A stretch of DNA of 64,000 nt, taken from Terriglobia bacterium (GTDB lineage Bacteria > Acidobacteriota > Vicinamibacteria > Vicinamibacterales > CAVVIG01). The position numbers and the translations under genes were made by a program. Location of the stretch: positions 20,878 to 84,877 of the forward strand of contig JAIQFX010000044.1 in the NCBI GenBank assembly GCA_020073005.1, written 5' to 3'. Below the pieces are notes generated by a model. That model was not told where the DNA came from and did no database searches. It saw only the letters and a program-made list of their open reading frames with translations. This document shows, in pieces, positions 3,958 to 44,388 of this stretch (position 1 is its first letter; each line of letters begins with the position of its first letter).

Positions 3958-4985
3958 TGGCAATCTTCGATCCCTCGATGTATGACGGCGAGACGGTCCT
4001 CGTGACCGGCGGAGCAGGAGCCATCGGCAGCAATCTCACGCGCGCGCTGGCCGAGGCTGGCGCCCGCGTGATTGTGCTCGACGACCTCTCGTCTGGCGAG
4101 CGATGGAACGTGCCTTCACTGTCTCGAGTACTCTTTTCTGAAGGCAGCGTGCTCGACGAGGTGAAGCTCAAGCGCGTCTTCTTCGAGCGTCCCGCCATTG
4201 TTTTTCATCTCGCAGCCTTTTTCGCAAACCAGAACAGCGTAGACCATCCCGAGCACGACCTCATGGTCAACGGGCTGGGCACCCTCCGGCTTCTGCAGTA
4301 CTCGGCGCTGGCGGGAGTGGAGCGCTTCGTGTACGCGTCCTCGGGTTGTTCGATCTACGGGAGCGCTGCGCCGTTGCCACTTCGCGAGGAGTTTACGTCG
4401 CTCCATCTGAGTTCCCCCTACCAGATAACCAAGATGCTCGGCGAGCTCTACGCGAACTTCTTCCAGCATCACTACGATCTCAAAGTGGTGAAGCCGCGGT
4501 TCTTCAACTCCTATGGTCCTGGAGAAATCCCCGGCCAGTACCGCAACGTCATCCCCAACTTCATCTACTGGGCCATGCGCGGGGAGCCGCTGCCCATCAC
4601 CGGTTCCGGCGAGGAGACGCGTGACTTCACCTTCGTGGGCGACATCGTGAACGGGCTCCTGCGCGCGGGAGTCATGGAGAGCGCGGTCGGGCAGGAGTTC
4701 AATCTCGCCTCGGGACGGGAAACGCGGATCGTTGATGTGGCCAACTTGATCCTCGCCGCCACCGGCAGCAAGGCCGGCATCCGCTTCGCGGAGCGTCGGA
4801 AGTGGGACACGAAGAGCCGTCTGCTCGCTTCGATCGATCGCGCCCGCACCGTCATTGGTTACGATCCCCGTACGACGTTCGAGACGGGGCTCGAGCGGAC
4901 CGTACAGTGGTTCCGCGATCACCGCGAACGGATTGACGCGGCAGCCCGCTTCGGCCCCGGCGCTTCGTCCGCGGTGAGGAGCTGA
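3957..4985 (+). CDS. NAD-dependent NDP-sugar epimerase/dehydratase
   Basis: TGGAGAIG, YQITK, RFFNSYGP, RDFTFV; start overlaps upstream stop. Confidence 0.9.
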   Translation: MAIFDPSMYDGETVLVTGGAGAIGSNLTRALAEAGARVIVLDDLSSGERWNVPSLSRVLFSEGSVLDEVKLKRVFFERPAIVFHLAAFFANQNSVDHPEHDLMVNGLGTLRLLQYSALAGVERFVYASSGCSIYGSAAPLPLREEFTSLHLSSPYQITKMLGELYANFFQHHYDLKVVKPRFFNSYGPGEIPGQYRNVIPNFIYWAMRGEPLPITGSGEETRDFTFVGDIVNGLLRAGVMESAVGQEFNLASGRETRIVDVANLILAATGSKAGIRFAERRKWDTKSRLLASIDRARTVIGYDPRTTFETGLERTVQWFRDHRERIDAAARFGPGASSAVRS

Positions 4986-30100: not shown

Positions 30101-30801
30101 GGCGTGCCGAGCGTGTCGCCGTACGTCGTCAGCGCCGTCCTCATCGTCGTGCCGCCACTGCCGCCGCTATAGGCCAGCCCGAAGTCGGTGACGACGGCCC
30201 GTACATCCTGTCCACTCTTGGACGGGACGAGCATCACGTTCGCGCTTTTCAGATCGCGGTGCACGATGCCGGCCGCGTGCGCGGCGTCGAGCGCGGCGGT
30301 GACCTGCGCGATGATCGCGATCGCATCCGCGGGCGCCATGCGGCCTTCGCGTTCGAGCCGCTCGTGCAGCGTTTCACCGCTGAGCAGTTCCATCGTCAGG
30401 AACGTGAGCCGCTCGACGTCGTCTGAACGCTCCGCAACGTCGCTTGGGCGCTCGGGCTCCGGCCACTGGTGATGGAAGATGTCGAAAATGCGCGAGACGT
30501 TGGGATGCGTGACCTTGCGCGCCAGCTGGATCTCGCGCTTGAAGCGCGCCAGCGCCATCGGGTCTTCCGCGATGTCTGGACGGATCGTCTTGAGCGCGAC
30601 GTTCTCGTTCAGCTCGATGTCGTGCGCTTCGTAGACTTCGCCCATGCCGCCGCGGGCGATGAAGCGCACGATCGTGAAGCGCTCGGCGAGCACCAGTCCG
30701 GCCTCGAGCGCAGGGGGCGCGACACGCGGCGCGCGGTTGACGCGTCCCGACTGGCTGAGCCGCAGCGTCGCGCGATCGTCCGGAACGTTCTCGTTAGACA
30801 C
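27136..30801 (-). CDS. Hanks-type Ser/Thr protein kinase with TM helix, TolB_N-like segment and TPR array
   Basis: RGGMGEVY, ALKT, HRDLKSAN, TDFGLA, YMAPE; TM near aa 350; many TPR repeats. Confidence 0.93.
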   Translation of the reverse strand: MSNENVPDDRATLRLSQSGRVNRAPRVAPPALEAGLVLAERFTIVRFIARGGMGEVYEAHDIELNENVALKTIRPDIAEDPMALARFKREIQLARKVTHPNVSRIFDIFHHQWPEPERPSDVAERSDDVERLTFLTMELLSGETLHERLEREGRMAPADAIAIIAQVTAALDAAHAAGIVHRDLKSANVMLVPSKSGQDVRAVVTDFGLAYSGGSGGTTMRTALTTYGDTLGTPDYMAPEQVTGGTITEAADIYALGIVMYEMVTGRRPFTSDSPLTTAVKRLSEPPPPPRTHVKDLDQRWEATILRCLERNPADRFSSAGDVLKALAGGEVAAGRRELDERRRRKQRALVIGAGAAALLVVTALGVRYVPSLVRSQASSAGNAGRPAAAAVKARRGVAVIGFKNSSAKPESAWISTALSEMLTTELGAGEQLQTSSSDTVARVKTDLGLSEADAYPKDTLGRIRANLGTDVIVLGSYLASGGRVRLDLRMQDTTSGETIATVGETVGESDLIDLATRAGEQLRAKLGLGALSAADAQSVQAALPANAEAARLYAEGVAKLRVADALGAKGLLERAVIADPKHALAHTALAAAWSAMGYDGNSRAEAKKAFDLSTSASREDRYVVEARYHEAAQEWDQAAATYEKLFGFFPDSLDYGLRLASSQTAAGKGREALGTLDALRKLPAPANDDPRIDLAEANTAAALSDFKRERTAAANAAAKGTKTGARLIVGNARLAEGWALRNLGQLPDAAAALEDAKSIFVTASDRGGVARAVNYQGLLLKDQGYLDQAREMFQQALTIRRAIGDLAGVAATMNNIGTILWQRGQLAEARDMHAQALTTYRQIGNRTGIAQTQQNMGNVSVYQGDLPGARKMYEDALASYRDVGNKSGEADILNNLASLLLNSGDAAGARPLFADALKIQREIGRKTGIGGALTNLGFALLQEGDYAAAAKNFDEAVAVYRDLKDQEGVASALTNSGIGLQQQGRLAEAKKAFDDALAANASRGRTLSAQSRLGQVLMLQGDVPAARKTYEAALAGWQQLGDKFGAAQTQIALAQIAIEEGRPADAETAARTIADQFAAQKRADGEALALDAVARALLAEGKAVEAAKAVARAQSLPAAALATLPRDTRLVFDITGARTAAATGKSADGIRALNATLATATKGLMVWPQFEARLALGEIEMQSGQTAAGVARLQALERDATPKNFGLIARHTAAARRGAK

Positions 30802-32296
30802 GAGTGCCTGCTGCAGGCTGTCGAGCCGCCATCATCTTCGCGCGGATCTGGATGATTTCATCCTCGCACCGGTCGAAGGCCTCGACGACGGCGGGATCGA
30901 ACTGCTTGCCGGGCTCGGCGCGGATGCGCCGGCCGGCTTCGTCGGCGGGAAGCCCGGCGCGATACGGACGATCCGACGTCATCGCGTCGTAGGTGTCGGC
31001 CACGGCCATCAACCGCGCGTGCAGATGGATGCGTTCGCCGGCGAGGGCGTCCGGATAGCCCTTCCCGTCCCATCGCTCGTGATGGCCGCGAATCGAGGGC
31101 AGCGATTCCTGCAGGAACGGCAGACCCGACAGCATCTCGTGACCGATCGTGACGTGACTTTCCATCATCGCGCGTTCGTCCGGATCGAGATGCCCGGGCT
31201 TCTGCAACACGCGGTCGGGAATGCCGACCTTGCCGATGTCGTGCAGCATGCCGGCGCGACGGATGATCTCGAGCGCGGGCGCGTCGAGTCCGGTGAATCT
31301 CGCGAGGGCGAGCGTGTACGCGGTCACGCGCTCCGAATGACCGGCCGTGTAGCGATCTCTGGCTTCGATCGACTTCGCAAACGCCTCGAGCGTCGATCGG
31401 AAATGCGCCTCGCGATCGGCGTACAGCTTGCCGGTCTCGAGCGCGGTGGCGGCATGCGCGGCAAAGCCGGAGGCGTACTCGACGTCGGCGGGCGCGAATC
31501 CCGCGCCGCCATGACGGTCCGCGTACAGCGCGCCGATCGGGCCGGTGCGGCCGAGCAACGGTACGCAGATGATGCTGCGCGCACCGGCCTTCATGATGCT
31601 CATGGCGTCCTGAAACCGGCGATCGCCGCGCACGTCCACGAGGACGACGGCCTCACGGGCGTCGATCGCTTCGCGCACGACTGTCGCGCTGGCGAATTCC
31701 GATACCGACGCGTATTCGCCCGCCGGACGCACGGCCCGCGGCGCGAGCGTCCCGGTCCCGGCGTCGTAGAACAGGATGGCGCTGCGGTGCGGCTTCAGGA
31801 TCTCGGTCAGCCGGTCGAGCACGTGCTCGAGCAGGACACCCAGATCGGCAAACGCCATCAGCTCCCGGCTGGTGGCCAGAAGCGCCTCGAGCACGCGCCG
31901 ATCGACCTTCGTGTGGGCGTCGGGCGCCATCGCAAAGCGCGTCATCGATCCCCACGCCGGCGCGTCAGCGACGCTGCGGGACGGCGCGGTGCCGTTGTCG
32001 GCGAGGAACTCGAGGGCGCCGATCGTCAGCTGATCGCCGGCGGCGATTCGCGCCGTGGAGACGCGCGCGCCGTTGACGAAAATGCCGTTCGTGCTGCCGA
32101 GATCCTCCGCCGTCACCTCGCCGTCGCCGGCCATCGTCAGCCGCATGTGCTGCCGGGACAGGCTGATGTCGTCGATGGAGATATCCGCGCTCGCCCCGCG
32201 GCCCACGACCTTCGATTCACCGGGATTGACGACGATCGTCGGCACCGCGCGATGCGCCGTCAGCGGTCTCAGCCGGATGAGCGGCATCGGGTCCAT
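30794..32296 (-). CDS. FHA-GAF-HD-GYP cyclic dinucleotide phosphodiesterase
   Basis: FHA (VVGR, SRQH, DLGSTNG), GAF, HSERV, LHDIGK, HHERWDGKGYP, DAMTSDRPYR. Confidence 0.92.
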   Translation of the reverse strand: MDPMPLIRLRPLTAHRAVPTIVVNPGESKVVGRGASADISIDDISLSRQHMRLTMAGDGEVTAEDLGSTNGIFVNGARVSTARIAAGDQLTIGALEFLADNGTAPSRSVADAPAWGSMTRFAMAPDAHTKVDRRVLEALLATSRELMAFADLGVLLEHVLDRLTEILKPHRSAILFYDAGTGTLAPRAVRPAGEYASVSEFASATVVREAIDAREAVVLVDVRGDRRFQDAMSIMKAGARSIICVPLLGRTGPIGALYADRHGGAGFAPADVEYASGFAAHAATALETGKLYADREAHFRSTLEAFAKSIEARDRYTAGHSERVTAYTLALARFTGLDAPALEIIRRAGMLHDIGKVGIPDRVLQKPGHLDPDERAMMESHVTIGHEMLSGLPFLQESLPSIRGHHERWDGKGYPDALAGERIHLHARLMAVADTYDAMTSDRPYRAGLPADEAGRRIRAEPGKQFDPAVVEAFDRCEDEIIQIRAKMMAARQPAAGTRV

Positions 32297-32299
32297 TCT

Positions 32300-33769
32300 C
32301 TACGCTCTTTCGATCCGCTTGAGTTTTTCGACGAGCGTGGTGCGCTTCAGATTGAGCAGCTTCGCGGCCTGCCCTTTGTTCCCGCCCGTGCGCTCGAGCG
32401 CGCGCTGCACGAGGTCGCGCTCGATCCCGCCGATGAAGTCGTCCAGGTCCAGTCCGCCTTCGGGCAGCGTGACCGCCGACGCCAGCGCCGCTTCCTGCGC
32501 CTGCTGAATCTCGTTCGGCAGATCGCCGGCGTCGATCTGCGCGCGGCCCGCGCTGAAGGCGACCGCGCGCTCGACCGCGTTCTCGAGCTGCCGCACGTTG
32601 CCCGGCCAGTGGTACGCCATCAGCCGGCGCATCGCGTCCTGCGACACGCTTTTGCGGACAGATCGCTCGCCTGAAAGACTCGCGCTACGTTCGCCCGCGC
32701 TACGTTCGCTCGCGCTACGTTCGCCCGCGCTACGTTCGCCCGCGCTGCGATCGCCGCTGGCGAGCTTGTCGAGGAAATGCTGGACCAGCAGCGGGATGTC
32801 CTCTTTGCGCTCGCGCAGCGGCGGCAGCTGGACCGGAATCACGTTCAGCCGGTAGAACAGGTCCTCGCGAAACGTCCCCTCGGCCACGAGCCGTCCGAGA
32901 TCGCTGTTCGTTGCCGCGATCACGCGCACATCCACCTTGATGGTGTGATTCGAGTCGCCGACGCGCTCGAACTCACGCTCCTGCAGCACGCGCAGCAGCT
33001 TCATCTGCAGCGCCGCGCTCATCGTGCCGACTTCGTCGAGGAACAGCGTGCCTTTGTGCGCCTGCTCGAGCCGGCCCTGCCGGTTGCCGACGGCGCCCGT
33101 GAACGCGCCGCGGACGTGGCCGAACAGTTCGGCCTCGAGCAGCGTCTCGGGAATGGCGCTGCAATTGAGCGCGACGAACCGGTGCAGGCGCCGCGGACTG
33201 CCCTGATGGATCGCGCGCGCCACGACTTCCTTGCCGGTCCCGGTTTCGCCAGTAATAAGGATGGTGCTGCCCGTGGGCGCGACGGTTTCGAGCAGCTGAA
33301 ACAGCCGCGACATCGCCTGCCCGCGTCCGACGACGCCTTCGAAGCGATCGCGTTTCTCGAGCTGCGCCCGCAGGTACGCGTTTTCCGATTTCAGCCGGCG
33401 CTGTTCGATCGCCGAGTCGAGCACGTGGAGCAGCTCGTCGATCTGAAACGGCTTGCTGACGAAATCCCACGCGCCGCGCTTGATGGCTTCGACCGCGTCC
33501 TTCACGGTGCCGTAGCCGGTGACGACGATCGCGATGATGTCCGGATACCGTTCGACGGCGCCTTCGACGACGGCCGAACCGTCGACGCCGGGCAAACGGA
33601 GATCAGTAATGATGATGTCGAACGCGAAGTCGGCCAGCTTGGCGAGCGCCGCTTCGCCCGTGTCGACCTGCTCGACCTGATAGCCGCGGTCCGCCAGCTG
33701 CTCCGCGATCGCCACCCGCAGAGGGGCCTCGTCTTCGACCAGCAAGAGATGTTTTGTAGAATCAGTCAT
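32300..33769 (-). CDS. Sigma54-dependent response regulator (REC-AAA+-Fis HTH; NtrC/FlrC-like)
   Basis: REC (VEDE, TDLRLP, SKP), GETGTGKE, GAFTGA, FLDEV, WPGNVRQLEN, C-terminal HTH. Confidence 0.95.
   Translation of the reverse strand: MTDSTKHLLLVEDEAPLRVAIAEQLADRGYQVEQVDTGEAALAKLADFAFDIIITDLRLPGVDGSAVVEGAVERYPDIIAIVVTGYGTVKDAVEAIKRGAWDFVSKPFQIDELLHVLDSAIEQRRLKSENAYLRAQLEKRDRFEGVVGRGQAMSRLFQLLETVAPTGSTILITGETGTGKEVVARAIHQGSPRRLHRFVALNCSAIPETLLEAELFGHVRGAFTGAVGNRQGRLEQAHKGTLFLDEVGTMSAALQMKLLRVLQEREFERVGDSNHTIKVDVRVIAATNSDLGRLVAEGTFREDLFYRLNVIPVQLPPLRERKEDIPLLVQHFLDKLASGDRSAGERSAGERSASERSAGERSASLSGERSVRKSVSQDAMRRLMAYHWPGNVRQLENAVERAVAFSAGRAQIDAGDLPNEIQQAQEAALASAVTLPEGGLDLDDFIGGIERDLVQRALERTGGNKGQAAKLLNLKRTTLVEKLKRIERA
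32664..32755 (-). repeat. In-frame REP-like element plus five 15-bp tandem repeats inside the activator gene
   Basis: Unit cgcgctacgttcgcc at 32681-32755 encoding SAGER-type repeats; reverse complement of 32664-32688 matches 61621-61645 at 22/25 nt. Confidence 0.85.
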
Positions 33770-33895
33770 TTAGCGGAGCGCCAGTATTTTGACACTCGGC
33801 GGCCCCCCGTGTCCATATCCGGTCGTTCGCCTTCTTCACGTCCTGACTATTCCCGGCCCGGCCTCCCACCGATAGAGGGGGCTGGAGGAAAGAAC

Positions 33896-34114
33896 GTGGA
33901 GCGAAAAACCATCTCGATCATGAAGGCCTGTGAGCTGGTCGGCGTCAGCCGCCGCACGATTTACAATTGGCTCTCGAGCGGCAAGATCGAATACGTGCGC
34001 ACGGCCGGCGGTTCAGTACGCATCTTCGTCGACACGCTGTGGCGCGACCCGAACAACGCCAGTCGCCCCGCGGTCCAGACGATGTGGCAGACCGAAGGCC
34101 GGAATCAGGCCTGA
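33896..34114 (+). CDS. Single-domain excisionase/BldC-like (MerR-type HTH) DNA-binding protein
   Basis: GGAGG SD, GTG start, ISIMKACELVGVSRRTIYNWLSSGKIEYVRTAGGSVRI. Confidence 0.85.
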   Translation: MERKTISIMKACELVGVSRRTIYNWLSSGKIEYVRTAGGSVRIFVDTLWRDPNNASRPAVQTMWQTEGRNQA

Positions 34115-34368
34115 TGCCGCGTCCGTTCAGCGTCGAGGAACTGCTCGCCAGGGGACCAATGGACGAATCACCCGAATTGCGTCTCCTGTTCCACCGCCTC
34201 AACAATCAGCTCGGGATCATCCTGGCGCACGCAGAATTGCTCGAAGCGAAAGCGCCCGACGACATGAATCGGGCGCGAGCGGGCCAGGTTGTCTCGAGCG
34301 CGCTCGAGGCGATGGGCACCGCCAAGGAAATCCGACGTCTCGCCGCCCCTTCGGTCGATCCCCAGTAA
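34114..34368 (+). CDS. Stand-alone HisKA/DHp-like mini-protein
   Basis: LFHRLNNQLGIILAHAELL resembles an H-box helix, followed by a second helix; no ATPase domain; start 34114 or 34159. Confidence 0.7.
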   Translation: MPRPFSVEELLARGPMDESPELRLLFHRLNNQLGIILAHAELLEAKAPDDMNRARAGQVVSSALEAMGTAKEIRRLAAPSVDPQ

Positions 34369-34393
34369 ACTCACACAATAACGTAATTCAGCC

Positions 34394-34439
34394 GTCATTT
34401 TTTTGGCTGACTGGACCTGTAAATCGTCAAACAATTGAC
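34394..34439. promoter_or_regulatory. Tandem enhancer-like sites GTCA-N6-TGAC
   Basis: GTCAttttttTGGC 34394-34407 and palindromic GTCAaacaatTGAC 34426-34439, 32 bp apart, in an AT-rich island upstream of a sigma54 promoter. Confidence 0.6.
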
Positions 34440-34573
34440 GATATTGCGCTCGTTCGGACGCCATTCCGCAGCCGGGTCCAGAAATAGACCACGCCGATAA
34501 ATACCTGAAATAAAGCGTCTTAGCGTGTACTTCGTCGCGTTAGTGGTGAGCTCCAGAACACGAGCCCAATTGT

Positions 34574-34588
34574 TGGTACCGGCGTTGC
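34574..34588 (+). promoter_or_regulatory. Sigma54 (-24/-12) promoter of the FliA/WhiG gene
   Basis: TGGTAC-cggcg-TTGC fits TGGYAC-N5-TTGC; AGGAG SD at 34613. Confidence 0.7.
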
Positions 34589-34624
34589 GATAGCGCGCAA
34601 CTGTCGGAAACCAGGAGACACCAC

Positions 34625-35569
34625 ATGCGTGTTCAGCCCGTTGCCGCCAATCAGAACCGCCGTATCGTCGCCAGCTTGCCGTTTGTCGAGGCGCTGGCTC
34701 GACGAATGGCTGCGTCGATGCCGAATTCGATCGACATCGGCGATCTCGTGCAGGACGGCGTGCTCGGTCTCATCGATGCCGCGCATCGCTTCGATGAAGA
34801 TCGCGGCATCAAGTTCGAGACGTTCGCGGAACGGCGCGTGCGCGGCGCGATGATCGACGCGCTTCGCAAGGACGCGTGGCCCCGCGGCGTCCGCCGCCAG
34901 CGGCGCGAGCTCGACGCGGCCCGCGAAGCGCTGCGCCGCGAGCTGGGACACGAGCCGTCGATGGCCGACCTCGCCGCGCGCGTCGGCTCGGACGAGAAAC
35001 GGCTGAGCCGGACCATCGTGCGCATCAACACGATCGAAGCGACGTCGCCGCTCGCGACGGGCGAGCACATGGACGAGAACTCGCTGCCGACCGTGCTCGT
35101 GCCGTCGGAGCCCGACGCGCCGGACATGGCCTACGAAAAGGCCGAGACGCGCGACCGCGTGCGCGCCGCGATTCAATCGCTCCCCTGGCGCGAGCGGAAA
35201 GTGATCGGGCTCTACTACTACGGCGAAGTGACGATGAAGCAGATCGGCGCCGAGATCGGCGTCAACGAATCGCGCGTCTCGCAGCTTCATGCGCGCGCGA
35301 TCCGCCGCCTGCGCGACGCGATCGGCGACATGAACCCGCAGAAGATCGCCGAGATGCGCCGTCAGCTGATCGCGTTCGCGGTGAAGAAGCCGGTGATGGC
35401 GAAGGCGGACGTTCGCTCTGCGTATAAGCCGGACGCGACGATGACCGCCGAGACGGTCGCCACGCCGCACGCCGTCGTCCTGCCGTACAAGGCGACGAAA
35501 CGTACGGCGCCCGTGAAGGCGACGCTCAAGATGGCGCGGTCGCGGCAGGCAGTCGCGGCGGCGAGGTAG
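34625..35569 (+). CDS. fliA: FliA/WhiG-family (sigma28) RNA polymerase sigma factor with basic C-terminal extension
   Basis: DLVQDGVLGLIDAA.RFD, KFETFA..RVRGAMIDALR, LYYY.E.TMKQIG..IGVNESRVSQLH. Confidence 0.88.
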   Translation: MRVQPVAANQNRRIVASLPFVEALARRMAASMPNSIDIGDLVQDGVLGLIDAAHRFDEDRGIKFETFAERRVRGAMIDALRKDAWPRGVRRQRRELDAAREALRRELGHEPSMADLAARVGSDEKRLSRTIVRINTIEATSPLATGEHMDENSLPTVLVPSEPDAPDMAYEKAETRDRVRAAIQSLPWRERKVIGLYYYGEVTMKQIGAEIGVNESRVSQLHARAIRRLRDAIGDMNPQKIAEMRRQLIAFAVKKPVMAKADVRSAYKPDATMTAETVATPHAVVLPYKATKRTAPVKATLKMARSRQAVAAAR

Positions 35570-35572
35570 CGG

Positions 35573-37096
35573 TCAGGAGAGGCCGTCGCGCACCGCGCGC
35601 AGCAGGTCGCCCAGGCGGAACGGTTTCGCCAGCCACCGGCAGCCGCTCTCCTGAAGAAACTTCTCCGCGTCGGTGCCGGCCACGTCACCCGTGACGAAGA
35701 TCACGCGTTTGGCCAGCGCCGGCGCCGCGGACGCGAGCTCGCGCGAGAACGACTGGCCGTCGAGCCGCGGCATCTTCAAGTCACAAATCACCAGATCGAA
35801 CGGCTCGGCTTTGATCTTCGCGAGCGCCTCGATGCCGTCCACCGCGTGCTGGACGACGTAGCCCGCGTCGCGCAGCGCGTCGACGACGGCGCTCGCCAGC
35901 TTCGTCTCATCCTCGACGACGAGAATCGCCGCGCCGACGACCGCCTTGACGGGCTCGGACAGGCGCGCCTTCATGCCGCCCTCCGGCCCGAGCTTCCTGC
36001 CGCTGACCGGGACCTCGACGAAGAATGACGCGCCGGCGTTCGGACGCGACTCGAGCCGGATGCGGCCGCCGTGCTCCTGCACGATCGCGTACGCGACGGT
36101 CAAGCCGAGTCCCGTCCCCTTGCCGACTTCCTTCGTGGTGAAGAACGGATCGAAGATCTTCGGCTGCAGCTCGTCCGGAATCCCAGGGCCATCGTCGTTG
36201 ATCTCGAGAATGACGGATTCCTGCTCGGCGTTGTGCCACGTGCGCACGACGAGGACGCCGCGTCCGTGCGCCGACAGCATCGCCTGCTCGGCGTTGATCA
36301 CGAGATTCAGCAGCACCTGCTGGAGCTGATGGCCGTCCGCGAACACCTGCGGCAGGCCGGCGGCCAGCGCGTCGATCACGCTGATGTTGGTGACGCGCTG
36401 ATCGTACGCGCGCAGCGCCAGCGTTTCGCGGACCACTTGATTGATGTCCACCATCGCGCGCGTCGTCTGACGCTTGCGGGCGAAGGTGAGCAGGTTGCGG
36501 ACGATCCGTGCGGCGCGTTCGGCCTCCGACTGGATCGTCTCCACGCCGCGGCGCACCGGATCGTCGAGCGTGCGCTGCGACAACCGCTCGGCCCAGCTGA
36601 GGATCGTCGCCAGCGGATTGTTCAGCTCGTGCGCGACGCCGGACATCGTCTGGCCGAGCGCGGCCATCTTCTCCGCCTGCAGCAGCTGGTGATAAATGTC
36701 GCGCGTCTCGTCGTCGAGCTTCTTGCGCTCGCTCACGTCGCGGATCAGCGCCTCGACGCGGACCGTGCCGTCCTCCGCCGGCGGATCCGCGCGCGCCGTC
36801 AGCTCCACCCAGGCGGGATTGCCGTCCGCGCGGCGCAGGCGCATCAGATAGTTGTTCACCGATCCATCGGTCGAGAGACGCTCGACGAGCGCGACGCGCG
36901 CCTGCGGATCGACGAATCGCTCGTGATCGAACGGACGGACGTCGCCCTCCGGCGCCTCGCTCGGGTACCCGAAGATCAGTTTGAGGTGGGGATTGGCGGC
37001 AATCGTCGACGTGGTCGCGGGACCGATCGTCCCGATGTACACGCCTTCGTGCACGGCCTCGAACAGCCGCGCGAATGCCGATGCGCGTCGCTCCAC
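35573..37096 (-). CDS. Cytoplasmic PAS-HisKA-HATPase-REC hybrid histidine kinase
   Basis: PAS, AHELNNP, NLVINA, DDGPG, FFTTK..GKGTGLGL, REC (EDE, CDLKMP, AKP). Confidence 0.93.
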   Translation of the reverse strand: MERRASAFARLFEAVHEGVYIGTIGPATTSTIAANPHLKLIFGYPSEAPEGDVRPFDHERFVDPQARVALVERLSTDGSVNNYLMRLRRADGNPAWVELTARADPPAEDGTVRVEALIRDVSERKKLDDETRDIYHQLLQAEKMAALGQTMSGVAHELNNPLATILSWAERLSQRTLDDPVRRGVETIQSEAERAARIVRNLLTFARKRQTTRAMVDINQVVRETLALRAYDQRVTNISVIDALAAGLPQVFADGHQLQQVLLNLVINAEQAMLSAHGRGVLVVRTWHNAEQESVILEINDDGPGIPDELQPKIFDPFFTTKEVGKGTGLGLTVAYAIVQEHGGRIRLESRPNAGASFFVEVPVSGRKLGPEGGMKARLSEPVKAVVGAAILVVEDETKLASAVVDALRDAGYVVQHAVDGIEALAKIKAEPFDLVICDLKMPRLDGQSFSRELASAAPALAKRVIFVTGDVAGTDAEKFLQESGCRWLAKPFRLGDLLRAVRDGLS

Positions 37097-37114
37097 TGTC
37101 GGATTATACGGGCT

Positions 37115-37183
37115 TGGTGACTGGTGACTGGTGACTGGTGACTAAAGACGGGTGCGTTCTTTCCAGCCACCAGCCACCAACCC
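37115..37183. repeat. Facing heptamer tandem repeats
   Basis: (TGGTGAC)x4 at 37115-37142 and (CCAGCCA)x2 plus CCAACCC at 37163-37183. Confidence 0.85.
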
Positions 37184-37798
37184 TCACTTCGTCGGCGCCG
37201 GCGCCGTCGGCGTATGCGTCGGATAGGTGCCCGACCACTTTTTTTCGTTCGCGGCCCGAATGTCCCGCACCGAGGCGCCCGAGTTGTACATCTGCATCGC
37301 GTCACGCGCGACGTCCAGGCAGATGGCTCATGTCATGCCGTGCGGCTCCCACTGCGTCACGTCGCCCTTCGCGTCCCGGGCCGTGACGAAGCAATCTTCG
37401 TTGCCGCGATGTCCGGAATGCTCGCAGCCGCAGTAGCACGGCACGTAGCTCAACACTTCCGGATGCTCGGCGGCGAACTTGTACGCCGCGCGCACGGTTT
37501 CCATCGGCCGCGCCGGCGGCTCGGGATCGAAGGGCAGCGGCGGCAGATTCTCCTGAGGATGCGGACCGAGCTTCGCCGATTCCGGCGGATCGACCACGGC
37601 CGGCAGTGGCGCCGTTTGCGCGGCCGGCTGCGTCGCAGCGGGACCCGACGATCGCATGTAGACCAGCGCGCCGCCGATCACGAGAATCAGCGCGGCGCCC
37701 GCGAGCATCATCGGCATCGATGATCGCGGCGGCTCTGCCGGTGGTGTCGAGGATGCCCCCGGCCGGGCCTGCGCTTTGGCGGAAGATTTGCGACCCAT
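37184..37798 (-). CDS. PCYCGC-motif membrane-anchored protein with in-frame UGA (probable selenocysteine, UxxC)
   Basis: TM helix, YVPCYCGC, H..NEDCF, EPHGMT-TGA(37328-37330)-AICLDVA; frame continues 47 codons to TGA at 37184. Confidence 0.8.
37289..37325 (-). promoter_or_regulatory. Candidate bacterial SECIS hairpin
   Basis: Immediately 3' of the UGA: CAUCUGC..GUCGCG-CGUGA-CGCGAU-GCAGAUG; apical loop 21 nt from the UGA with G at position 2 followed by U. Confidence 0.65.
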
Positions 37799-37849
37799 CA
37801 TTTTCATTTTACCGTGCATTCCGCTTTGGGCTAAAGTGCGATCGGTCCC

Positions 37850-39049
37850 ATGAATCTTGTTGGGCGTCAGGACCGCCTGTTGCTCGGCGGTCTGGCCGTC
37901 GCCGTGATCGTCGTCTTCGCGCGGCCGATCGAGCGCTACGGCCTCAGCCTGGCGCGCGAAGCCGAGCGCAGCTCCGGCCTCGCCCTCGTGCCCGCGCTGC
38001 TGATTCTGGTCGCGGTTTTCCTCTTCCATCAGCAAGGCAAACGTCAGGAAGCGAGAGCGCGCACCACGGCGGCGGAAGCCGACGCGAAACAGGCGGGCGC
38101 GCGCGCCGCGGAGATGGAGCGGCTCGTCAATCTCGGTCAGGCGCTCGCCCGATCGCTCGATCTGGAAACGATTCGCGACGCCGTGCTGCAGCACCTGCCC
38201 AAGCTCGCGGGCACCGAGGACGTCTGGATCCTTCTGCGCGTGAGCGGCCACTGGCAGGCGCTGGTCGGCCCGGCGCGCGACACGCGCCGCGAGATCGAGC
38301 GCGCGCGCGAGCACGTGGCCGATCGCGCGCTGGCCGGCGATCTCGCACCCGAGGGTCTGGCCGCCGACGGACAGTATTGCCTGCGGCTCACGGCGGGCGG
38401 GGACATCGTCGGCGTGCTCGGCGTGCCCGAGACCGACGGCCCGATCCAGGAGGCGCGGAAGCGCGTGCTGGCGACGGCCGGGGCGCTGCTCGGCATCTCG
38501 CTTCGCAACGCGCAGCTGTTCCACGAAATCCGCGAGACCAGCCTCCGCGACGGCCTGACCGGCTGCTACAACCGCACGCACGCGCTCGAAGTGATCGACT
38601 CGGAGCTGCGCCGCGCCCGGCGATCGCAGATGCCGATGTCGCTCATCATGTTCGATCTCGATCACTTCAAGGACGTCAACGATCGCTACGGCCATCTCTG
38701 CGGCGACGCGGTGCTGGCGGGCGTCGGCGTCAAGATGCGCGACGCCCTCCGCGGCAGCGATCTGAAATGCCGGTACGGCGGCGAAGAATTTCTCGTGCTG
38801 CTGCCGGAGACGCCGCTCGAAGGCGCCAAGCGCGTCGCGGACTCGCTGCGCCGCGAGCTCGCGGACATGCGCATCACGTGGAAGGACGATTCGCTCACGG
38901 TGACGGCGAGCTTCGGCGTCTCCGTCGCGCTGCCGGCCGAAGTCGACGGCCAGGCGCTCATCGCCCGCGCGGACGCGGCCCTCTACCGCGCCAAAGATCA
39001 GGGACGCAACTGCGTCCGCCTTTCGATCGAAACCGCCGTCGTCGCATAA
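37850..39049 (+). CDS. Membrane-anchored GAF-like/GGDEF diguanylate cyclase
   Basis: Two TMs, DGLTG, DLDHFK.VND.YGH..GD, RGSD I-site, RYGGEEF. Confidence 0.93.
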   Translation: MNLVGRQDRLLLGGLAVAVIVVFARPIERYGLSLAREAERSSGLALVPALLILVAVFLFHQQGKRQEARARTTAAEADAKQAGARAAEMERLVNLGQALARSLDLETIRDAVLQHLPKLAGTEDVWILLRVSGHWQALVGPARDTRREIERAREHVADRALAGDLAPEGLAADGQYCLRLTAGGDIVGVLGVPETDGPIQEARKRVLATAGALLGISLRNAQLFHEIRETSLRDGLTGCYNRTHALEVIDSELRRARRSQMPMSLIMFDLDHFKDVNDRYGHLCGDAVLAGVGVKMRDALRGSDLKCRYGGEEFLVLLPETPLEGAKRVADSLRRELADMRITWKDDSLTVTASFGVSVALPAEVDGQALIARADAALYRAKDQGRNCVRLSIETAVVA

Positions 39050-39078
39050 GCCCCACGCGCACGTGGTACCGTAATTCG

Positions 39079-39981
39079 GTGTCACACACGACCCGGCGCG
39101 CGTATCTGGCCTGGATCGCCGTGTGCCTGATCTGGGGCACGACGTATCTCGCCATCCGCATCTCGCTCGAGACCATTCCGCCGCTGCTGATGGCGGCGAT
39201 CAGATGGATCGTCGCGGGCACGCTGCTCATCACGATCCTCAAGATCCGCGGCGAGCGCCTGCCGGGGCCGCGCGCGTGGCCGTCGCTCGCCATCCTCGGC
39301 GTACTGCTGCTCGGCTTCGGCAACGGCGCGGTCGTCTGGGCCGAGCAGACCGTGCCGAGCGGCCTGACGGCCGTGCTCGTCGCCACCTGTCCGTTCTGGA
39401 TGGTCGGCATCGACGCGGTGATGCCGGACGGCGCGCGCCTGACGATCACGCGCGTGGCCGGACTGGCGGTCGGGTTCGGCGGCATCGTCATTCTGGTCTG
39501 GCCGGAAATCCACGCGAGCGACGCCGGCGGCCGCGCGTTCCTCGGCGGCGTGATTGCGGCGCAGATCGCGTGCGTCGGCTGGGCGATCGGATCGTCGTAC
39601 GCCCGCCACCGCGGGCGCGGTCACGCGCGCGACGAAAACGTCCTCGCGACGGCGGCGTTCGAGATGCTGTTCGGCGGCATCGTGCTGCTCGTCGCCGGAC
39701 TCGTCTTGCGCGAAGCCTCGCACCTGGCCTTCACGCCGAGGACGACAGCCGCGCTCGTCTACCTGATCTTCTTCGGCGCGATCGGCGGCTTCACGGCGTA
39801 CGCGTACGCGCTCAAGCATCTTCCCGTCGCCACGGTGTCGCTCTACGCGTACGTCAATCCGATCATCGCGGTCGTGCTCGGGACGATCGTGCTCAGCGAG
39901 CCGCTGAATGCGCGGATGGTGATCGCCGCAGCGGTCGTGCTGGGCGGAATGGCGATGGTCAGGGCTGAAGCGAGAGCCTAG
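39079..39981 (+). CDS. EamA/DMT family transporter (YedA-like)
   Basis: IWGTTYLAIR, about 10 TMs, YAYVNP..AV.LG...L.E; GTG 39079. Confidence 0.9.
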   Translation: MSHTTRRAYLAWIAVCLIWGTTYLAIRISLETIPPLLMAAIRWIVAGTLLITILKIRGERLPGPRAWPSLAILGVLLLGFGNGAVVWAEQTVPSGLTAVLVATCPFWMVGIDAVMPDGARLTITRVAGLAVGFGGIVILVWPEIHASDAGGRAFLGGVIAAQIACVGWAIGSSYARHRGRGHARDENVLATAAFEMLFGGIVLLVAGLVLREASHLAFTPRTTAALVYLIFFGAIGGFTAYAYALKHLPVATVSLYAYVNPIIAVVLGTIVLSEPLNARMVIAAAVVLGGMAMVRAEARA

Positions 39982-40015
39982 AAGTCAGAACTGAGAAGTT
40001 GGAACTGAAAAGTGA
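39981..40015. repeat. Degenerate heptamer tandem repeat
   Basis: gaagtca gaactga gaagttg gaactga aaagtga. Confidence 0.7.
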
Positions 40016-40653
40016 AGACGCGCACACGTTTTGTCATCGTCCTGATCTCCGCGCTCCTGACGCCAGCTGCATCACTCGCACAGGACGCGGCACCGCCTTC
40101 TTCGCCGCAGACTGATACGAGGGGCCGCGTCGTGGATGCCGTGCAGTTTCTCGCCGGCGGCGCGCTCGGGTTGGCGATGCACGAGAGCGGGCATCTGATC
40201 GTCGACGGGATGTTCGACGCGCAGCCGCGACTCGAAGGCATCCGGTTCGGGCCGTTTCCGTTCTTCGCGATCACTCACAACGCGAACGTGTCGCCTCGGC
40301 GCGAGTTCACGATCTCGTCCGCGGGATTCTGGGTGCAAAGCCTGTCGAGCGAGTGGCTGCTCACGCGCGATCGCCTTCGCGAGGAGCACGCGCCGGTCGC
40401 CAAGGGCGTGCTCGCGTTCAACGTCCTCGATTCGGTGGGCTACGCCGCGGTGGCGCTGGCGAAAGCCGGCCCCGTCGAGCGCGACACGCGAGGGATGGCG
40501 TCGGGAATCGACGTGGACGAACGTGCCGTCGCGCTCGTCGTGCTCGCGCCGGCGGCGTTCGACGCGTATCGGTATTTCCATCCGGACGCGCGCTGGGCGG
40601 TGTGGGCGTCGCGGATCGCGAAGATCGGTTCGGTGACGCTCGTTGTGAAATGA
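40012..40653 (+). CDS. Exported/membrane protein with HExxH motif
   Basis: Signal peptide, LAMHESGH, hydrophobic segments. Confidence 0.65.
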   Translation: MKTRTRFVIVLISALLTPAASLAQDAAPPSSPQTDTRGRVVDAVQFLAGGALGLAMHESGHLIVDGMFDAQPRLEGIRFGPFPFFAITHNANVSPRREFTISSAGFWVQSLSSEWLLTRDRLREEHAPVAKGVLAFNVLDSVGYAAVALAKAGPVERDTRGMASGIDVDERAVALVVLAPAAFDAYRYFHPDARWAVWASRIAKIGSVTLVVK

Positions 40654-40656
40654 CGC

Positions 40657-41112
40657 CTACGTCTCTTCCGGCTTCGGCCCGAGCGCGAACGTCATCGAGC
40701 CTTCGGCGACCGTGATTCCGTTCACCGTCGCGACGCCTTTGAGCAGTCCCATCCGGGTGCGCAGCCGCACGACGTTGGCTTCGATCACGACGACGTCGCC
40801 CGGGTGCACGGCGCGGCGGTAGCGCACGCGCTCGATGCCCGCGAAGAAGGGCAGGCGCTGGCGGTTCTCGGGCTTGGCGAGGATGAGGATCGCGCCGACC
40901 TGCGCCACGGCCTCGGTGAGGATCGTCGGCGGCATCACGGGCGGGCCCTGCGTCGAGTACGACAGGTAGCGTTCGTTGTGCGAAACGTTCTTGATGCCGA
41001 CGATGCGCTTGTCGACTTCGAATTCGATGATGCGGTCGACCAGCAGGAACGGATAGCGGTGCGGCAGGATCCGTTCGATGTCGGCGTGGTCGAGCGGCAG
41101 CTTCAGGTCCAT
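40657..41112 (-). CDS. FabZ-like hotdog protein with degenerate active site
   Basis: ILPHRYPFLLVDRI, GIKNVS..E, EAVAQ, V.PGD; the GHFP motif is absent. Confidence 0.8.
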   Translation of the reverse strand: MDLKLPLDHADIERILPHRYPFLLVDRIIEFEVDKRIVGIKNVSHNERYLSYSTQGPPVMPPTILTEAVAQVGAILILAKPENRQRLPFFAGIERVRYRRAVHPGDVVVIEANVVRLRTRMGLLKGVATVNGITVAEGSMTFALGPKPEET

Positions 41113-41153
41113 GGGAAGGAAGCGATTATACTTCGGGGTGAGTTCTCGCCCTG

Positions 41154-42923
41154 ATGTCGACACCCGGCAACACCGCCCACACCGCGACCACCAACGACCA
41201 GCTCACGACGCTGTTCGCGCTCGGGCGCGAGGTGGCGTCGGTCCTCGATCTCGACGAGCTGCTCCGCAAGATTCCCGAGCTGATCGCGCGCCTGACGAAG
41301 TTCAAGGCGTTCGCGGTGTACCTGCTGGAGCCGAAGAAGGGCGAGCTGACGATCGCGTACTCGGTCGGCTATCCCGACGCGGCCAAGAAGCTGCACGTCA
41401 AGGTCGGGCGCGGTCTGGTCGGCGCCGCCGTCGCCGAGGGTCAGCCGATTCTCGTCAACGACGTCCTGACGGATCCGCGGTACGTCGAAGCCGTCCCCGG
41501 ATCGCGCGCCGAGCTCGTCGTGCCGCTCCGCCGCAAGGGGCGCGTGATCGGCGCCCTCAATCTGTTGAGCGACACGCCACACCAGTTCACCGAGACCGAC
41601 GAGACGATGCTGCGGCAGTTCGGCGCGTACGTGGCGGTGTCGATCGAGAACGCGCTGCTCATCGAGCACGATCGCGAGTACACGGCGACGCTCGAGACGC
41701 TCGCGGAAATCGCGCACGAGTTCGCGGCGATTCTCGATCTCGACGAGCTGCTGACCCGCCTGGCGCAGCTGACGCGCCGCGTGATCGACTACCGCACGTT
41801 CGGCATCTTCCTGCTGAACGAGGAGATGGGCGAGCTCGAGATGAAAGCGGCCGTGCGCTACGGCGATCGCGTGAACGCGCCGCGCGTGAAGCTCGGCCTG
41901 GGGCTCGTCGGCTACGCCGCGCTGCACAAGGAGGTCGTCCTCGTGCCGGACGTCTCGGCCGACCCCCGCTACATCAAGGTCGTCCACGATGCGCGGTCCG
42001 AGCTCGTGATCCCGCTGATGGTGCACGATCGCTGCATCGGCGTCTTCGATCTGGAGAGCCCGGAGCTCGACGCGTTCACGAAGAGCCACGCCGAGATCCT
42101 CACGCTGCTCGCGAGCCAGGCGGCCGTCGCCATCGAGAACGCGCGCCTGTATCAGACGATCCGCGCGAACGAGATCCGTCTCGAGAAGGAGATCCGGTTC
42201 GCCCAGCGCGTGCAGATGGCGCTGTTGCCGACGGAGCTGCCCAAGCGCATGAAGCACGTGGACGTCGCCGCGCGCTTCGAGCCCGCGCGCGGACTCGGCG
42301 GCGATCTCTACGACTTCCTCGCGCCCGAGCCCAACACGCTCGCGGTCGCCGTCGGCGACGTCTCGGGCAAGGGCGTGCCGGCCGCGCTCTACAGCGCGTT
42401 CGCCGGCGAGCTGATTCGATCGCGCACGTTCCGGCGCCGCTACGCGCTCGATCGCTTCACGCCGGCGGGCATCCTCGAGTCGACCAACATGATTCTCTGC
42501 GAGCGGCAGCTCGAGGAGTATTTCTGCACGCTCTGCTACGCGCTCTTCGATTTCAAGCGGCGCAGCGTCACGATCGCGAACTCCGGACTTCCGTATCCCG
42601 TGCGCTGTCGCGGCGACGAGGTCCACCAGATCGTGCTGCCGGGCATTCCACTCGGCGCGCTGGCCGGATCGAAGTACGACGAGCTGACGTTCGATCTCGC
42701 GGCGGGGGACGTGTTCGTGTTCTGCTCGGACGGCGTGTTCGAAGCCAACGACGCGGGCGGCCGGGAGTTCGGCGCCGAGCGGCTGCTGCAGGTGGTCGGC
42801 GACACGCGCCAGAAAGCCGCGAAAGAGATCGTCGCCGCGATTCTGGCCGCTGTTCAGGAATTCCGCGGAGGCGCGCCGCCGAACGACGACTTGACGACCG
42901 TCGCGGTGAAGATCACGACGTGA
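41154..42923 (+). CDS. GAF-GAF-PP2C (RsbU/SpoIIE-type) phosphatase
   Basis: Two GAF repeats, GGDLYD, GDVSGKG, SDGVFEA, DDLT. Confidence 0.92.
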   Translation: MSTPGNTAHTATTNDQLTTLFALGREVASVLDLDELLRKIPELIARLTKFKAFAVYLLEPKKGELTIAYSVGYPDAAKKLHVKVGRGLVGAAVAEGQPILVNDVLTDPRYVEAVPGSRAELVVPLRRKGRVIGALNLLSDTPHQFTETDETMLRQFGAYVAVSIENALLIEHDREYTATLETLAEIAHEFAAILDLDELLTRLAQLTRRVIDYRTFGIFLLNEEMGELEMKAAVRYGDRVNAPRVKLGLGLVGYAALHKEVVLVPDVSADPRYIKVVHDARSELVIPLMVHDRCIGVFDLESPELDAFTKSHAEILTLLASQAAVAIENARLYQTIRANEIRLEKEIRFAQRVQMALLPTELPKRMKHVDVAARFEPARGLGGDLYDFLAPEPNTLAVAVGDVSGKGVPAALYSAFAGELIRSRTFRRRYALDRFTPAGILESTNMILCERQLEEYFCTLCYALFDFKRRSVTIANSGLPYPVRCRGDEVHQIVLPGIPLGALAGSKYDELTFDLAAGDVFVFCSDGVFEANDAGGREFGAERLLQVVGDTRQKAAKEIVAAILAAVQEFRGGAPPNDDLTTVAVKITT

Positions 42924-42976
42924 TTTGAGGATCTGAGGATCTGAGGATTTGAGGATCTGAGGAAGTGAGGAAGTGG
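42923..42976. repeat. Octamer tandem repeat
   Basis: atttgagg atctgagg atctgagg atttgagg atctgagg aagtgagg aagtgg. Confidence 0.85.
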
Positions 42977-43062
42977 TCGCGCCGAATCGTGAGTGAAGAC
43001 CGAGGTGCGGCGATGCCAGCGCCTGCCTGAAGTTACGCACCCCGTGATTCGACGCGACCGGT
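42975..43062 (-). ncRNA. Candidate structured small RNA
   Basis: 14-bp outer stem (42975-42988/43046-43059) and 8-bp inner stem, both using G-U pairs on the minus strand; sigma54-like promoter directly upstream. Confidence 0.4.
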
Positions 43063-43072
43063 GATCCCTACA

Positions 43073-43088
43073 TCAAATCGCGTGCCCG
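43073..43088 (-). promoter_or_regulatory. Sigma54-like promoter
   Basis: Minus strand GGGCAC-gcgat-TTGA with correct -24/-12 spacing and a variant -12. Confidence 0.4.
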
Positions 43089-43185
43089 AAAACCGGCGCG
43101 AAAATGGCCGAAAAACGCTGATTGCGGTCTGGCGGGCGTCCTGCCCGCAGTACGGTCGACCTCAACCGGAGACATTCCGCGCCAC

Positions 43186-44337
43186 CTATGAGCTCGCCGC
43201 CTTCTTTTCGGCTGGTTCTTCAGGCGCGATGGCCACGACGCTCGCTAGATGCGCAGCGATGATCCCCGCGAGCGCTTGAACCGCTTGCGAGGTTTCCGCG
43301 CCGCCGCGGATCTCGGCGGAGAACACGCCGACGCAGCCGTCCGCCGTGAGAATCGGCGCCACCACGGCGCCGTTGCCGCCGCCGGGACGCGCGAGCACGA
43401 TCTGCAGCGTGCCCGATCGGTACGCGGCCGCCGCGGCGTTGTCCGCGGATCTCGGCATCGCCTGAATGCGCGCCACCGTCTGCGGACTGTAGCCGTGCGT
43501 CAGCGCCGGCTGCAGCGTCGCGCCGTCCGGACTTCCCATCCACACGACGATGCCGCTCGCGTCCAGCGCTTCGGCGGCGCGGCCCAGCAGCCGCTCGAGC
43601 TCGTGCGAATCTCTGACGCGCCCGAAGTCGGTCGCCAGCGCCGCGGCGTTGACGAGCACGGCCGAGGCACGCGCCACGGGCGGCTCGACGCGCGCGGCCG
43701 GCTGTGCCGCCGGCGGCGCGATGGCAACGGTCGGCGCTTCCAGCGCCACCGCGGTGAACAGCAGGACGACGACGATCAGGCAGGCGAGCGCGGCAGATGA
43801 AGCGATCGCGAGCGTCTGGCGCGCTCGAAGCGCGGCTGTGCGCGTCGCGTACGTCTGACGCTCGGTCGCTGTCGCCAGCTCCAGCTGGCGCGCGGCCGCC
43901 GCGATCGCGTTCGCGCCGTCGGAGAAGATCGTGTCGCCCGCGGTCAGCAGCTGTCCGGATTTCACGAGATCCCGCGCGCGCGCGTCGACTTTCTGAAACT
44001 CCACGACCGCGCCGGCGGCCTGGTCGAGCGCGCCCTGCACGTCGGCGTTCTGCGACGACTCCCGCAGCGCGTCGAGCGTGCTGGTCACCCCCATCGTGCC
44101 GGCCGCCACCTTCGGCGTCCAGAACGCGACACCCTGGCCCGCGGCGACGTAGGCCTGCTCGCCCGCGCGCACATCCGCCAGCGCGCCGGCCGCGTCACGC
44201 GCGCGCTGTTCGAACACGCGCGCGGCGGCGGCGAGATTCCCGATCTGCGTTTCGTAATTGAAGAATAAAAGACCGGCGGCGGCGAGTCCGATCCACGCGG
44301 CAGCACCGAGCGTCAATCGAATCGCGCGGGATCGCAT
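43186..44337 (-). CDS. Two-TM sensor-like protein: periplasmic helical bundle plus cytoplasmic GAF-like domain
   Basis: TM at aa 8-26 and about 176-198; C-terminal GAF-like pattern (VVAPIL..GCVGVF). Confidence 0.6.
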   Translation of the reverse strand: MRSRAIRLTLGAAAWIGLAAAGLLFFNYETQIGNLAAAARVFEQRARDAAGALADVRAGEQAYVAAGQGVAFWTPKVAAGTMGVTSTLDALRESSQNADVQGALDQAAGAVVEFQKVDARARDLVKSGQLLTAGDTIFSDGANAIAAAARQLELATATERQTYATRTAALRARQTLAIASSAALACLIVVVLLFTAVALEAPTVAIAPPAAQPAARVEPPVARASAVLVNAAALATDFGRVRDSHELERLLGRAAEALDASGIVVWMGSPDGATLQPALTHGYSPQTVARIQAMPRSADNAAAAAYRSGTLQIVLARPGGGNGAVVAPILTADGCVGVFSAEIRGGAETSQAVQALAGIIAAHLASVVAIAPEEPAEKKAASS

Positions 44338-44388
44338 GCGAGGCCCTTGGGGGGAAGTCAGCGAACGTCAGAGTATCATAAGCGTTCC

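Follow-up and report, generated by a model that had tools for sequence, protein, structure and literature searches.

The apparent stop codon inside a membrane-anchored gene of the window, that is, of the whole stretch of 64,000 nucleotides that was analysed, is almost certainly read as selenocysteine, as judged by comparison of homologous sequences. The best explanation overall, and a highly probable one, is that the product of this gene is a selenoprotein of 204 residues that belongs to the PCYCGC/CYCXC family, is decoded via a SECIS element and may carry a Sec/Cys extracytoplasmic metal or thiol centre. In the proposed mechanism, a short hairpin in the coding sequence, located 21 nt past the UGA, would recruit SelB loaded with Sec-tRNA(Sec), the UGA at 37330-37328 would be decoded as Sec157, and translation would run 47 codons further. 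The product is predicted to be a type-II membrane-anchored protein, composed of a short basic cytoplasmic tail, one transmembrane helix and a Pro-rich linker, with a compact, mostly helical domain that would sit outside the cytoplasmic membrane.

The reading frame and its in-frame UGA

The features of the gene, in positions of the window, are the following:

37184..37798, minus strand: full selenoprotein gene, 204 codons plus the terminal TGA (37184-37186), with the ATG at 37796-37798
37718..37798, minus strand: putative cytoplasmic N-terminal tail, residues 1-27 (MGRKSSAKAQ...), with 5 Arg/Lys, its topology assigned by the positive-inside rule
37655..37717, minus strand: predicted single transmembrane signal-anchor, residues 28-48 (MPMMLAGAALILVIGGALVYM), a hydrophobic stretch read from the sequence
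37205..37501, minus strand: PCYCGC domain, residues 100-198 (Pfam PF13798, E 4.7e-26)
37424..37441, minus strand: P-C-Y-C-G-C motif, residues 120-125, whose P and three C are invariant in 53 sequences
37328..37330, minus strand: in-frame UGA, almost certainly selenocysteine 157, at the TGA/Cys column and in the first position of U-A-I-C
37319..37321, minus strand: Cys160, the UxxC partner of Sec157, an invariant column placed in the first turn of helix 158-172 in the model

In translation, the minus-strand open reading frame is interrupted after ...EPHGMT by an in-frame TGA (37330-37328), and the frame past this codon reads AICLDVARDAMQMYNSGASVRDIRAANEKKW... for 47 further codons, until a second TGA is reached at 37186-37184. 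When the internal TGA is translated as U, the read-through product has 204 amino acids, the special codon being residue 157. Every statement that the original prediction had made about the sequence at this point was reproduced. The start codon at ATG 37798 (MGRKSSAKAQ...) matches that of the relatives, in which an upstream stop is found 1-4 codons ahead of the same MGRKSS, and this motif is retained in many relatives of the same family, even when they are only ~50% identical overall.

The N-terminal membrane anchor that had been proposed was likewise recovered, as a 21-residue hydrophobic stretch, read from the sequence, with 5 Arg/Lys ahead of it and 1 behind. According to the positive-inside rule, this asymmetry places the domain outside the cytoplasmic membrane. 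The lipoproteins found among the homologues of other phyla fit with an extracytoplasmic domain, considering that the Gemmatimonadota forms carry lipobox-like N-termini and that RefSeq names the Bacillota and Burkholderia homologues (lipo)proteins. The basic tail, the transmembrane anchor and the Pro-rich linker are clade-specific additions to a domain that matches PF13798 with 92 bits against a cut-off of 25, in a match that runs across the TGA. An AlphaFold2 model of residues 77-204, with a mean pLDDT of 96.5, is mostly helical and contains one two-strand hairpin, and in this model U157 directly precedes the long helix 158-172.

The read-through protein was searched in whole genomes with stops read through, which covered 60 relatives and 400 genomes from the phylum. 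Among the 58 homologous loci, the variable column of H-G-x-x-[U/C]-x-x-C was occupied by TGA in 20 and by TGC or TGT in 38, with conservation continuing after it; thus, the alignment agreed with the earlier proposal that the TGA stands at the first Cys of an H-x3-C-x2-C motif, interchangeable with Cys at a single column. More TGA forms at this column were identified in two relatives (G048 and G049), in three divergent paralogues of one genome (G307) and in four Gemmatimonadota loci, found via named records, and, overall, at least 29 homologous copies of the gene, spread over two phyla, have TGA there. Over 53 aligned domains, no variation was found at P120, C121, C123, C125, G129, H130, C136, H153, U/C157, C160 or G174, and very little in a TPTP motif close to the C-terminus. 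Since C160, G174 and TPTP are all encoded 3' of the UGA, the segment that follows it is under selection at the protein level.

A true stop or nonsense codon, which would leave a 156-residue product alone and turn the downstream frame into a decaying remnant or a sequencing error, is therefore very improbable. Gene callers do terminate the protein at this codon, and the free energy of the hairpin described below is unexceptional. However, the TGA recurs at one column across both phyla, the 47 downstream codons are conserved, including two invariant residues, and the stump would lack Cys160 and, according to the model, the two final helices of a domain that is well packed. Additionally, a TGA form was never found in selA-negative genomes, and the TGA is also present in contigs from other studies. 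In fact, contigs of three other runs (X2, X3 and X4), two of them from a different study, keep the TGA unchanged and differ only at 37192, 37241 and 37800. A sequencing error or a private nonsense mutation is excluded by this persistence, and the TGC or TGT that the original prediction had named as evidence against itself is not what these contigs hold.

The selenocysteine machinery, whose presence had been suggested as a check, was recovered from the assembly: selA (541 bits), selB (348 bits) and selD (349 bits) all score above their curated cut-offs, selD has one in-frame TGA of its own, and a tRNA-Sec scores 60.4 bits, with the anticodon read as UCA by ARAGORN. The selA gene was present in 48 of the 61 genomes examined, in 15 of the 15 genomes with a verified UGA form, while, of the 12 genomes that have the gene but not selA, 0 have an internal UGA, counts which serve as a consistency check and not as a statistic, given that kin are not independent.

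If the UGA were read as a standard amino acid (Trp, Cys or Gly), through a suppressor tRNA or a changed genetic code, the frame would also be open across the codon, but this reading is even less probable than a true stop. The gene and several of its relatives terminate at another TGA, which indicates that TGA is still a stop in these organisms. Moreover, the column is Cys in every homologue without TGA, and the genome combines a complete Sec machinery with a hairpin located where a bacterial SECIS is expected.

A SECIS-like hairpin and the origin of the Sec form

Two nested elements were delimited directly after the UGA:

37295..37313, minus strand: candidate SECIS core, with a stem of 6-7 bp and a 5-nt apical loop CGUGA (37302-37306), delimited by comparison and RNAalifold
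37289..37325, minus strand: whole hairpin in this genome, as folded, which adds a 7-bp lower stem pairing 37319-37325 with 37289-37295

Bacterial SECIS elements, such as that of E. coli fdhF, are hairpins that lie within the coding sequence, directly 3' of the UGA, at a spacing of 16-37 nt. In the present gene, the stem is formed by GUCGCG (37312-37307) and CGCGAU (37301-37296), closed by the loop CGUGA (37306-37302), and the distance from the UGA to the loop is exactly 21 nt, which falls inside that range. A hairpin right after the UGA, with a CGUGA loop at 21 nt, had been described from the sequence beforehand and was found again here. RNAalifold lengthens the stem to 7 bp (37313-37295); the register of the lower stem is not conserved among relatives, and this lower helix is only 75% paired over 20 sequences. 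The conserved G of the apical loop is common to this element and to the bacterial SECIS, whereas the sequence is unrelated to that of E. coli fdhF, the Gemmatimonadota loop (CGGGA) is without the U, and the core varies unusually little for proteins of about 45-100% identity. For the general features of the bSECIS, the figure legends of PMC1976440 and PMC2398784 were followed.

The fold of a 66-nt segment was no more stable than its shuffles (z +0.68, with 152 of 200 shuffles folding at least as well), and an Rfam scan of 36900-38000 returned only chance-level rows, far below the gathering scores. The comparison between Sec and Cys forms was far more discriminating. All 20 of the Sec forms have 6/6 pairs and the loop CGUGA, versus 1 of 38 Cys forms fully paired, and the loop of this single exception (L042) differs; hence, the hairpin is conserved and confined to the UGA forms. 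This extends to the choice of a synonymous codon, since all Sec forms (20/20) encode the Arg of the loop by CGT, which none of the Cys forms with Arg at this position uses (0/8, with CGC, CGG or CGA instead). A composite search pattern, TGA-N15-hairpin, has a single match in the 5.86-Mb genome and none in the reversed control.

Variation within the hairpin points in the same direction. In one relative (L062), the loop-closing pair changes from G-C to C-G through two substitutions, and the Gemmatimonadota forms have the same C-G closing pair together with the loop CGGGA, while in the G307 paralogues the base of the stem is an A-U pair and the loop is CGUGU. Over 30 copies, pairing extends to 96.6% of the cells of the 7-bp helix; 23 copies close the loop with G-C and 6 with C-G (one from Vicinamibacterales and five from Gemmatimonadota), and in none is this pair broken. 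The second position of the loop is a conserved G in 30/30 copies, and GU is found in 25/30. In this set, 0/500 shuffles match the observed pairing or covariation score, with the proviso that ten rows of the alignment were gathered by a pattern that requires the hairpin, nine of which had first been identified by protein homology, the exception being a second copy in L102. In the set of 20 sequences, the covariation is not significant, with 45/500 shuffles attaining the score, because the stem hardly varies. The compensatory change of the closing pair probably reflects only two events, one in L062 and one in Gemmatimonadota, and part of the nucleotide conservation is accounted for by the conserved peptide VARDAM. 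As a comparative example of a bacterial SECIS the locus is very clean, its near-invariant core being kept only together with the UGA, down to one synonymous Arg codon. The selD gene of the same genome also has a hairpin after its own UGA, and the two hairpins have no obvious loop or stem in common.

The history of the Sec form was approached by a quick maximum-likelihood tree, from which the Sec column and the SECIS-encoded residues had been removed. This tree requires at least 8 Sec/Cys changes, two of them forced by well-supported branches, and, the tree being unrooted, their direction is not readable from it. The SECIS core is near-identical in all Sec forms, even in paralogues that are 40% identical, which argues for a single origin of the Sec form, presumably followed by repeated replacement by Cys. 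Thus, the Sec form was probably ancestral to the Vicinamibacterales clade, with several later replacements by Cys probable as well.

Family membership and annotation

The gene is a further member of a selenoprotein family that had already been catalogued (CYCXC/OS_HP4) and is not new in kind. The tables of two reviews (PMC13188914 and PMC9312934) list a "CYCXC family protein (OS_HP4), PF13798, UxxC", and NCBIfam holds the model NF041379, 'CYCXC family (seleno)protein'; the guess that Sec forms of CYCxC proteins might be catalogued already was therefore correct. The main text of PMC1976440 and PMC2398784 does not contain the primary description of OS_HP4. The NF041379 proteins have the same domain and one Sec in UxxC (here U-A-I-C), with Cys homologues too. 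The present clade differs from them by its basic tail, transmembrane anchor and Pro-rich linker, and by falling below the 90-bit cut-off: the full protein scores 71 bits and the domain alone 73.2, with profile positions 11-89 of 90 aligned. When NF041379 was run on 15 sequences, 14, including this protein, scored 63-74 bits, and only L075, a small Cys form of another family of the phylum, passed (115.8 bits). Consequently, the curated model that could rescue the gene falls short of this clade.

In a collection of 5.8 billion proteins, the two closest entries (P0002 and P0003) have 155 and 159 residues, are 90% and 87% identical, and both terminate at ...EPHGMT, which demonstrates that gene callers truncate the gene, as had been anticipated for standard pipelines. 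Full-length matches are at most 66% identical and mostly unnamed or called 'hypothetical protein', P0004 being a Cys form. Therefore, the annotation is here corrected for a gene that is called as a stump of 155-159 residues in this genome and in its close relatives, and Acidobacteriota of soil and groundwater (Vicinamibacterales), as well as Gemmatimonadota, are added to the range of the Sec form of the PCYCGC family.

A natural Cys homologue compared with a protein atlas matched PCYCGC clusters only, which are commonest in Chloroflexota, Acidobacteriota and Bacillota. The PCYCGC (lipo)proteins of Bacillota, Burkholderiaceae and Thermomicrobium share with the present protein the Pfam domain, six conserved Cys and an extracytoplasmic location, and are 35-42% identical over the domain only. 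Those examined are annotated as uninterrupted genes and are presumably Cys forms; they are lipoproteins, whereas the present protein is predicted to be anchored by a transmembrane helix, and they are found in copper/heavy-metal and Dsb islands (6/7 contexts) rather than beside a histidine kinase. The literature on PCYCGC, PF13798 and CYCXC yielded no functional study; in a lipoproteome survey, a PCYCGC lipoprotein of Parageobacillus is described as adjoining an Fe3+-binding protein.

Putative function and genomic neighbourhood

Eight ligand-type residues of the domain are invariant, namely Cys121, Cys123, Cys125, His130, Cys136, His153, Sec157 and Cys160, and the AlphaFold2 model places Sec157-x-x-Cys160 at the N-terminal end of a helix. 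We tentatively favour the reading of the domain as an extracytoplasmic soft-metal (copper-type) or metal-stress thiol/selenol centre, with the Sec/Cys pair as its reactive part, although the case for it is close to balanced. In such a protein, the remaining Cys/His residues would hold a second, structural metal site, and Sec in place of Cys would give a stronger nucleophile or ligand. More broadly, an extracytoplasmic centre of either metal or thiol type is suggested by the eight invariant Cys/His/Sec residues and by the distant homologues that occur in copper/heavy-metal and Dsb islands.

The islands are known from plasmids. A homologue was found in 42 plasmid records, of which seven contexts were opened, and in 6/7 of these the homologues, 35-42% identical, are accompanied by heavy-metal P-type ATPases, ArsR/SmtB regulators, CopD and cation diffusion facilitators, as well as by multicopper oxidase, copper-binding proteins, SCO, DsbA, DsbD and TlpA; these are distant homologues, and plasmids are enriched for such islands anyway. 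The seventh context, a Thermomicrobium megaplasmid, has none of these metal or thiol genes. Nevertheless, the recurrent placement in copper/heavy-metal and Dsb islands provides a testable lead. No metal-related genes adjoin the gene in the window or at the Gemmatimonadota loci, which counts against both the metal and the oxidoreductase readings. In distant homologues from the phylum, the protein is joined to a CxxCH-containing part that weakly matches dihaem cytochrome c.

The main rival to a metal centre is an ordinary thiol/selenol-disulfide oxidoreductase acting outside the cytoplasm, comparable to CcmH, DsbA or TlpA, in which Sec157-Cys160 would alternate between a selenenylsulfide and a reduced state, acting on partner proteins, while the other Cys would form structural disulfides. 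This is possible, if doubtful. A UxxC with U in the first place is the usual layout of redox selenoproteins in the tables of reviews, the motif is predicted to stand at the N-terminal end of a helix, and homologues adjoin DsbA, DsbD, TlpA and BdbC-like genes. However, the islands in question are primarily metal-resistance islands, and two invariant His plus six invariant Cys exceed the needs of a redox pair.

Fold comparisons were brought to bear on the same question. In Pfam, no HMA or thioredoxin family was matched, PCYCGC being the only family at E<=0.1; a sequence profile search of the PDB returned one chance row (E 0.054), Foldseek against the PDB gave nothing at E<=0.001, and the best VIA match, a designed protein (Z 5.3, rmsd 3.0, 65 residues aligned), was not convincing. 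Among natural redox proteins, only CcmH came up in both fold searches; its periplasmic domain (2hl7, 2kw0) is likewise small and helical and has a CxxC redox pair. This match, which would favour an oxidoreductase, is weak (VIA Z 4.2, rmsd 3.7, 75 residues; Foldseek E 3.2, probability 0.14), within the range of scores common for helical proteins, and CcmH has no sequence relation to the present protein and is without its CxCxC and His ligands. An HMA domain was also considered, due to the purely local resemblance of G-M-T-U-x-x-C to the HMA motif GMxCxxC, and was rejected, since no HMA family was matched and the model is mostly helical instead of beta-alpha-beta-beta-alpha-beta.

The gene is located among signalling genes, as the original prediction had recognised, including the two that flank it:

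35573..37096, minus strand: hybrid histidine kinase, downstream on the same strand (Pfam: PAS-like N-terminus, HisKA, HATPase_c and REC)
37850..39049, plus strand: GGDEF diguanylate cyclase, divergent (Pfam PF00990, E 1.7e-46)

Around the locus are also found genes for a Ser/Thr kinase with TPR repeats, an FHA-GAF-HD protein, a sigma-54 activator, a sigma-70-family factor and a GAF-SpoIIE phosphatase. The kinase, in which no transmembrane segment was seen by eye, is directly downstream on the same strand in 46/58 loci, with 58-92% identity, and a GGDEF gene lies within the 1.5-kb flank in 20/58.

This arrangement raises the alternative that the selenoprotein is an outside metal or redox sensor, whose MGRKSS tail would signal to the soluble hybrid kinase and thereby control c-di-GMP. 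Such a role is unlikely, despite the recurrence of the kinase and of the divergent GGDEF gene, the absence of a membrane segment in the kinase, the retention of MGRKSS in distant relatives and the richness of the region in signalling genes. Of 13 related genomes where the search recovered no PCYCGC gene, 11 have a kinase orthologue, indicating that the kinase is independent of the selenoprotein; additionally, order-level relatives carry other N-terminal tails, and neither the Gemmatimonadota Sec forms nor the plasmid homologues have such a kinase adjoining. The two genes may thus be neighbours through conservation of gene order and not as a functional couple. A more elaborate version, in which a selenium-dependent outside sensor of copper-type metal or oxidant load would act through the cytoplasmic tail on the downstream kinase and from there on c-di-GMP and the sigma-factor genes of the island, is more unlikely still. 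If a sensor role were true, selenium supply, by determining whether the full-length protein or the 156-residue stump is made, would gate signalling in Vicinamibacterales.

The Gemmatimonadota Sec forms have amine oxidase, PqqD and epimerase genes as neighbours, and second paralogues lie beside genes for a 2Fe-2S protein and pirin, with no common theme. The three G307 paralogues are preceded by DUF5128-like beta-propeller open reading frames, the matches being weak (E 1e-5 to 1e-3).

Divergent Sec forms and longer homologues

Three PCYCGC paralogues, near-identical to each other and divergent from the read-through query protein (~40% identity), were found in a single locus of another genome, L082 (G307:C1:2542000-2558000), at the following positions within the locus:

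3358-4113, first PCYCGC paralogue copy
6185-6919, second PCYCGC paralogue copy
11958-12713, third PCYCGC paralogue copy

All three carry a TGA at the same column (HARTUPVC), together with the hairpin AUCGCG-CGUGU-CGCGAU. The ORF ahead of each copy weakly matches the DUF5128 six-bladed beta-propeller.

Sec forms were also present in Gemmatimonadota MAG records (L099-L102), with two copies in L102. These proteins have lipobox-like N-termini and lack the His before Sec (..MGFSU..), and their SECIS loop reads CGGGA instead of CGUGA. In other families of the phylum, four homologues of about 300 residues (L073, L074, L076 and L077) have CYCPC in place of CYCGC and an extra C-terminal part with a CxxCH motif, and a Pfam scan gave a weak match to dihaem cytochrome c in two of the three that were scanned.

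A Cys form was found on the L097 contig, entitled in its record as an uncultured Bifidobacteriaceae MAG, within a Vicinamibacterales-type trio of GGDEF (60% identity), PCYCGC (47%) and hybrid kinase (77%) genes; the Bifidobacteriaceae bin label is probably wrong.

The selD gene of the source genome

In the source genome, selD (L001, G000:C133) contains an in-frame TGA (..VACAGUASK..), which makes selenophosphate synthetase a selenoprotein in its own right here. The hairpin downstream of the selD TGA looks different from that of the PCYCGC selenoprotein gene.

Surroundings of the selenoprotein gene in the window

The features considered here are, in window positions:

27136-46950, dense signalling region
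37115-37143, perfect heptamer tandem repeat TGGTGAC x4.1
37163-37179, short repeat CCAGCCA x2.4
37328-39085, minus strand, 585-aa ORF from the ORF list

The signalling region encodes a Ser/Thr kinase with TPR repeats, an FHA-GAF-HD protein, a sigma-54-dependent response regulator, a sigma-70-family factor, the hybrid kinase, the GGDEF protein and a GAF-SpoIIE phosphatase; after these come genes for a TonB-type outer-membrane barrel and an RND efflux pair. The 585-aa ORF starts antisense to the GGDEF gene, enters the selenoprotein gene and stops at the Sec codon; it was rejected as a gene, being the real selenoprotein frame prolonged upstream through GC-rich DNA.

The selenoprotein gene and the kinase are separated by an 87-nt spacer, in which the heptamer repeat is followed by the second, shorter one. 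In other metagenome runs, contig depth rose to 166 versus ~6, with the spike located exactly at the spacer repeat, where many loose contig ends were also observed; thus, this repeat is common to many other loci or organisms.
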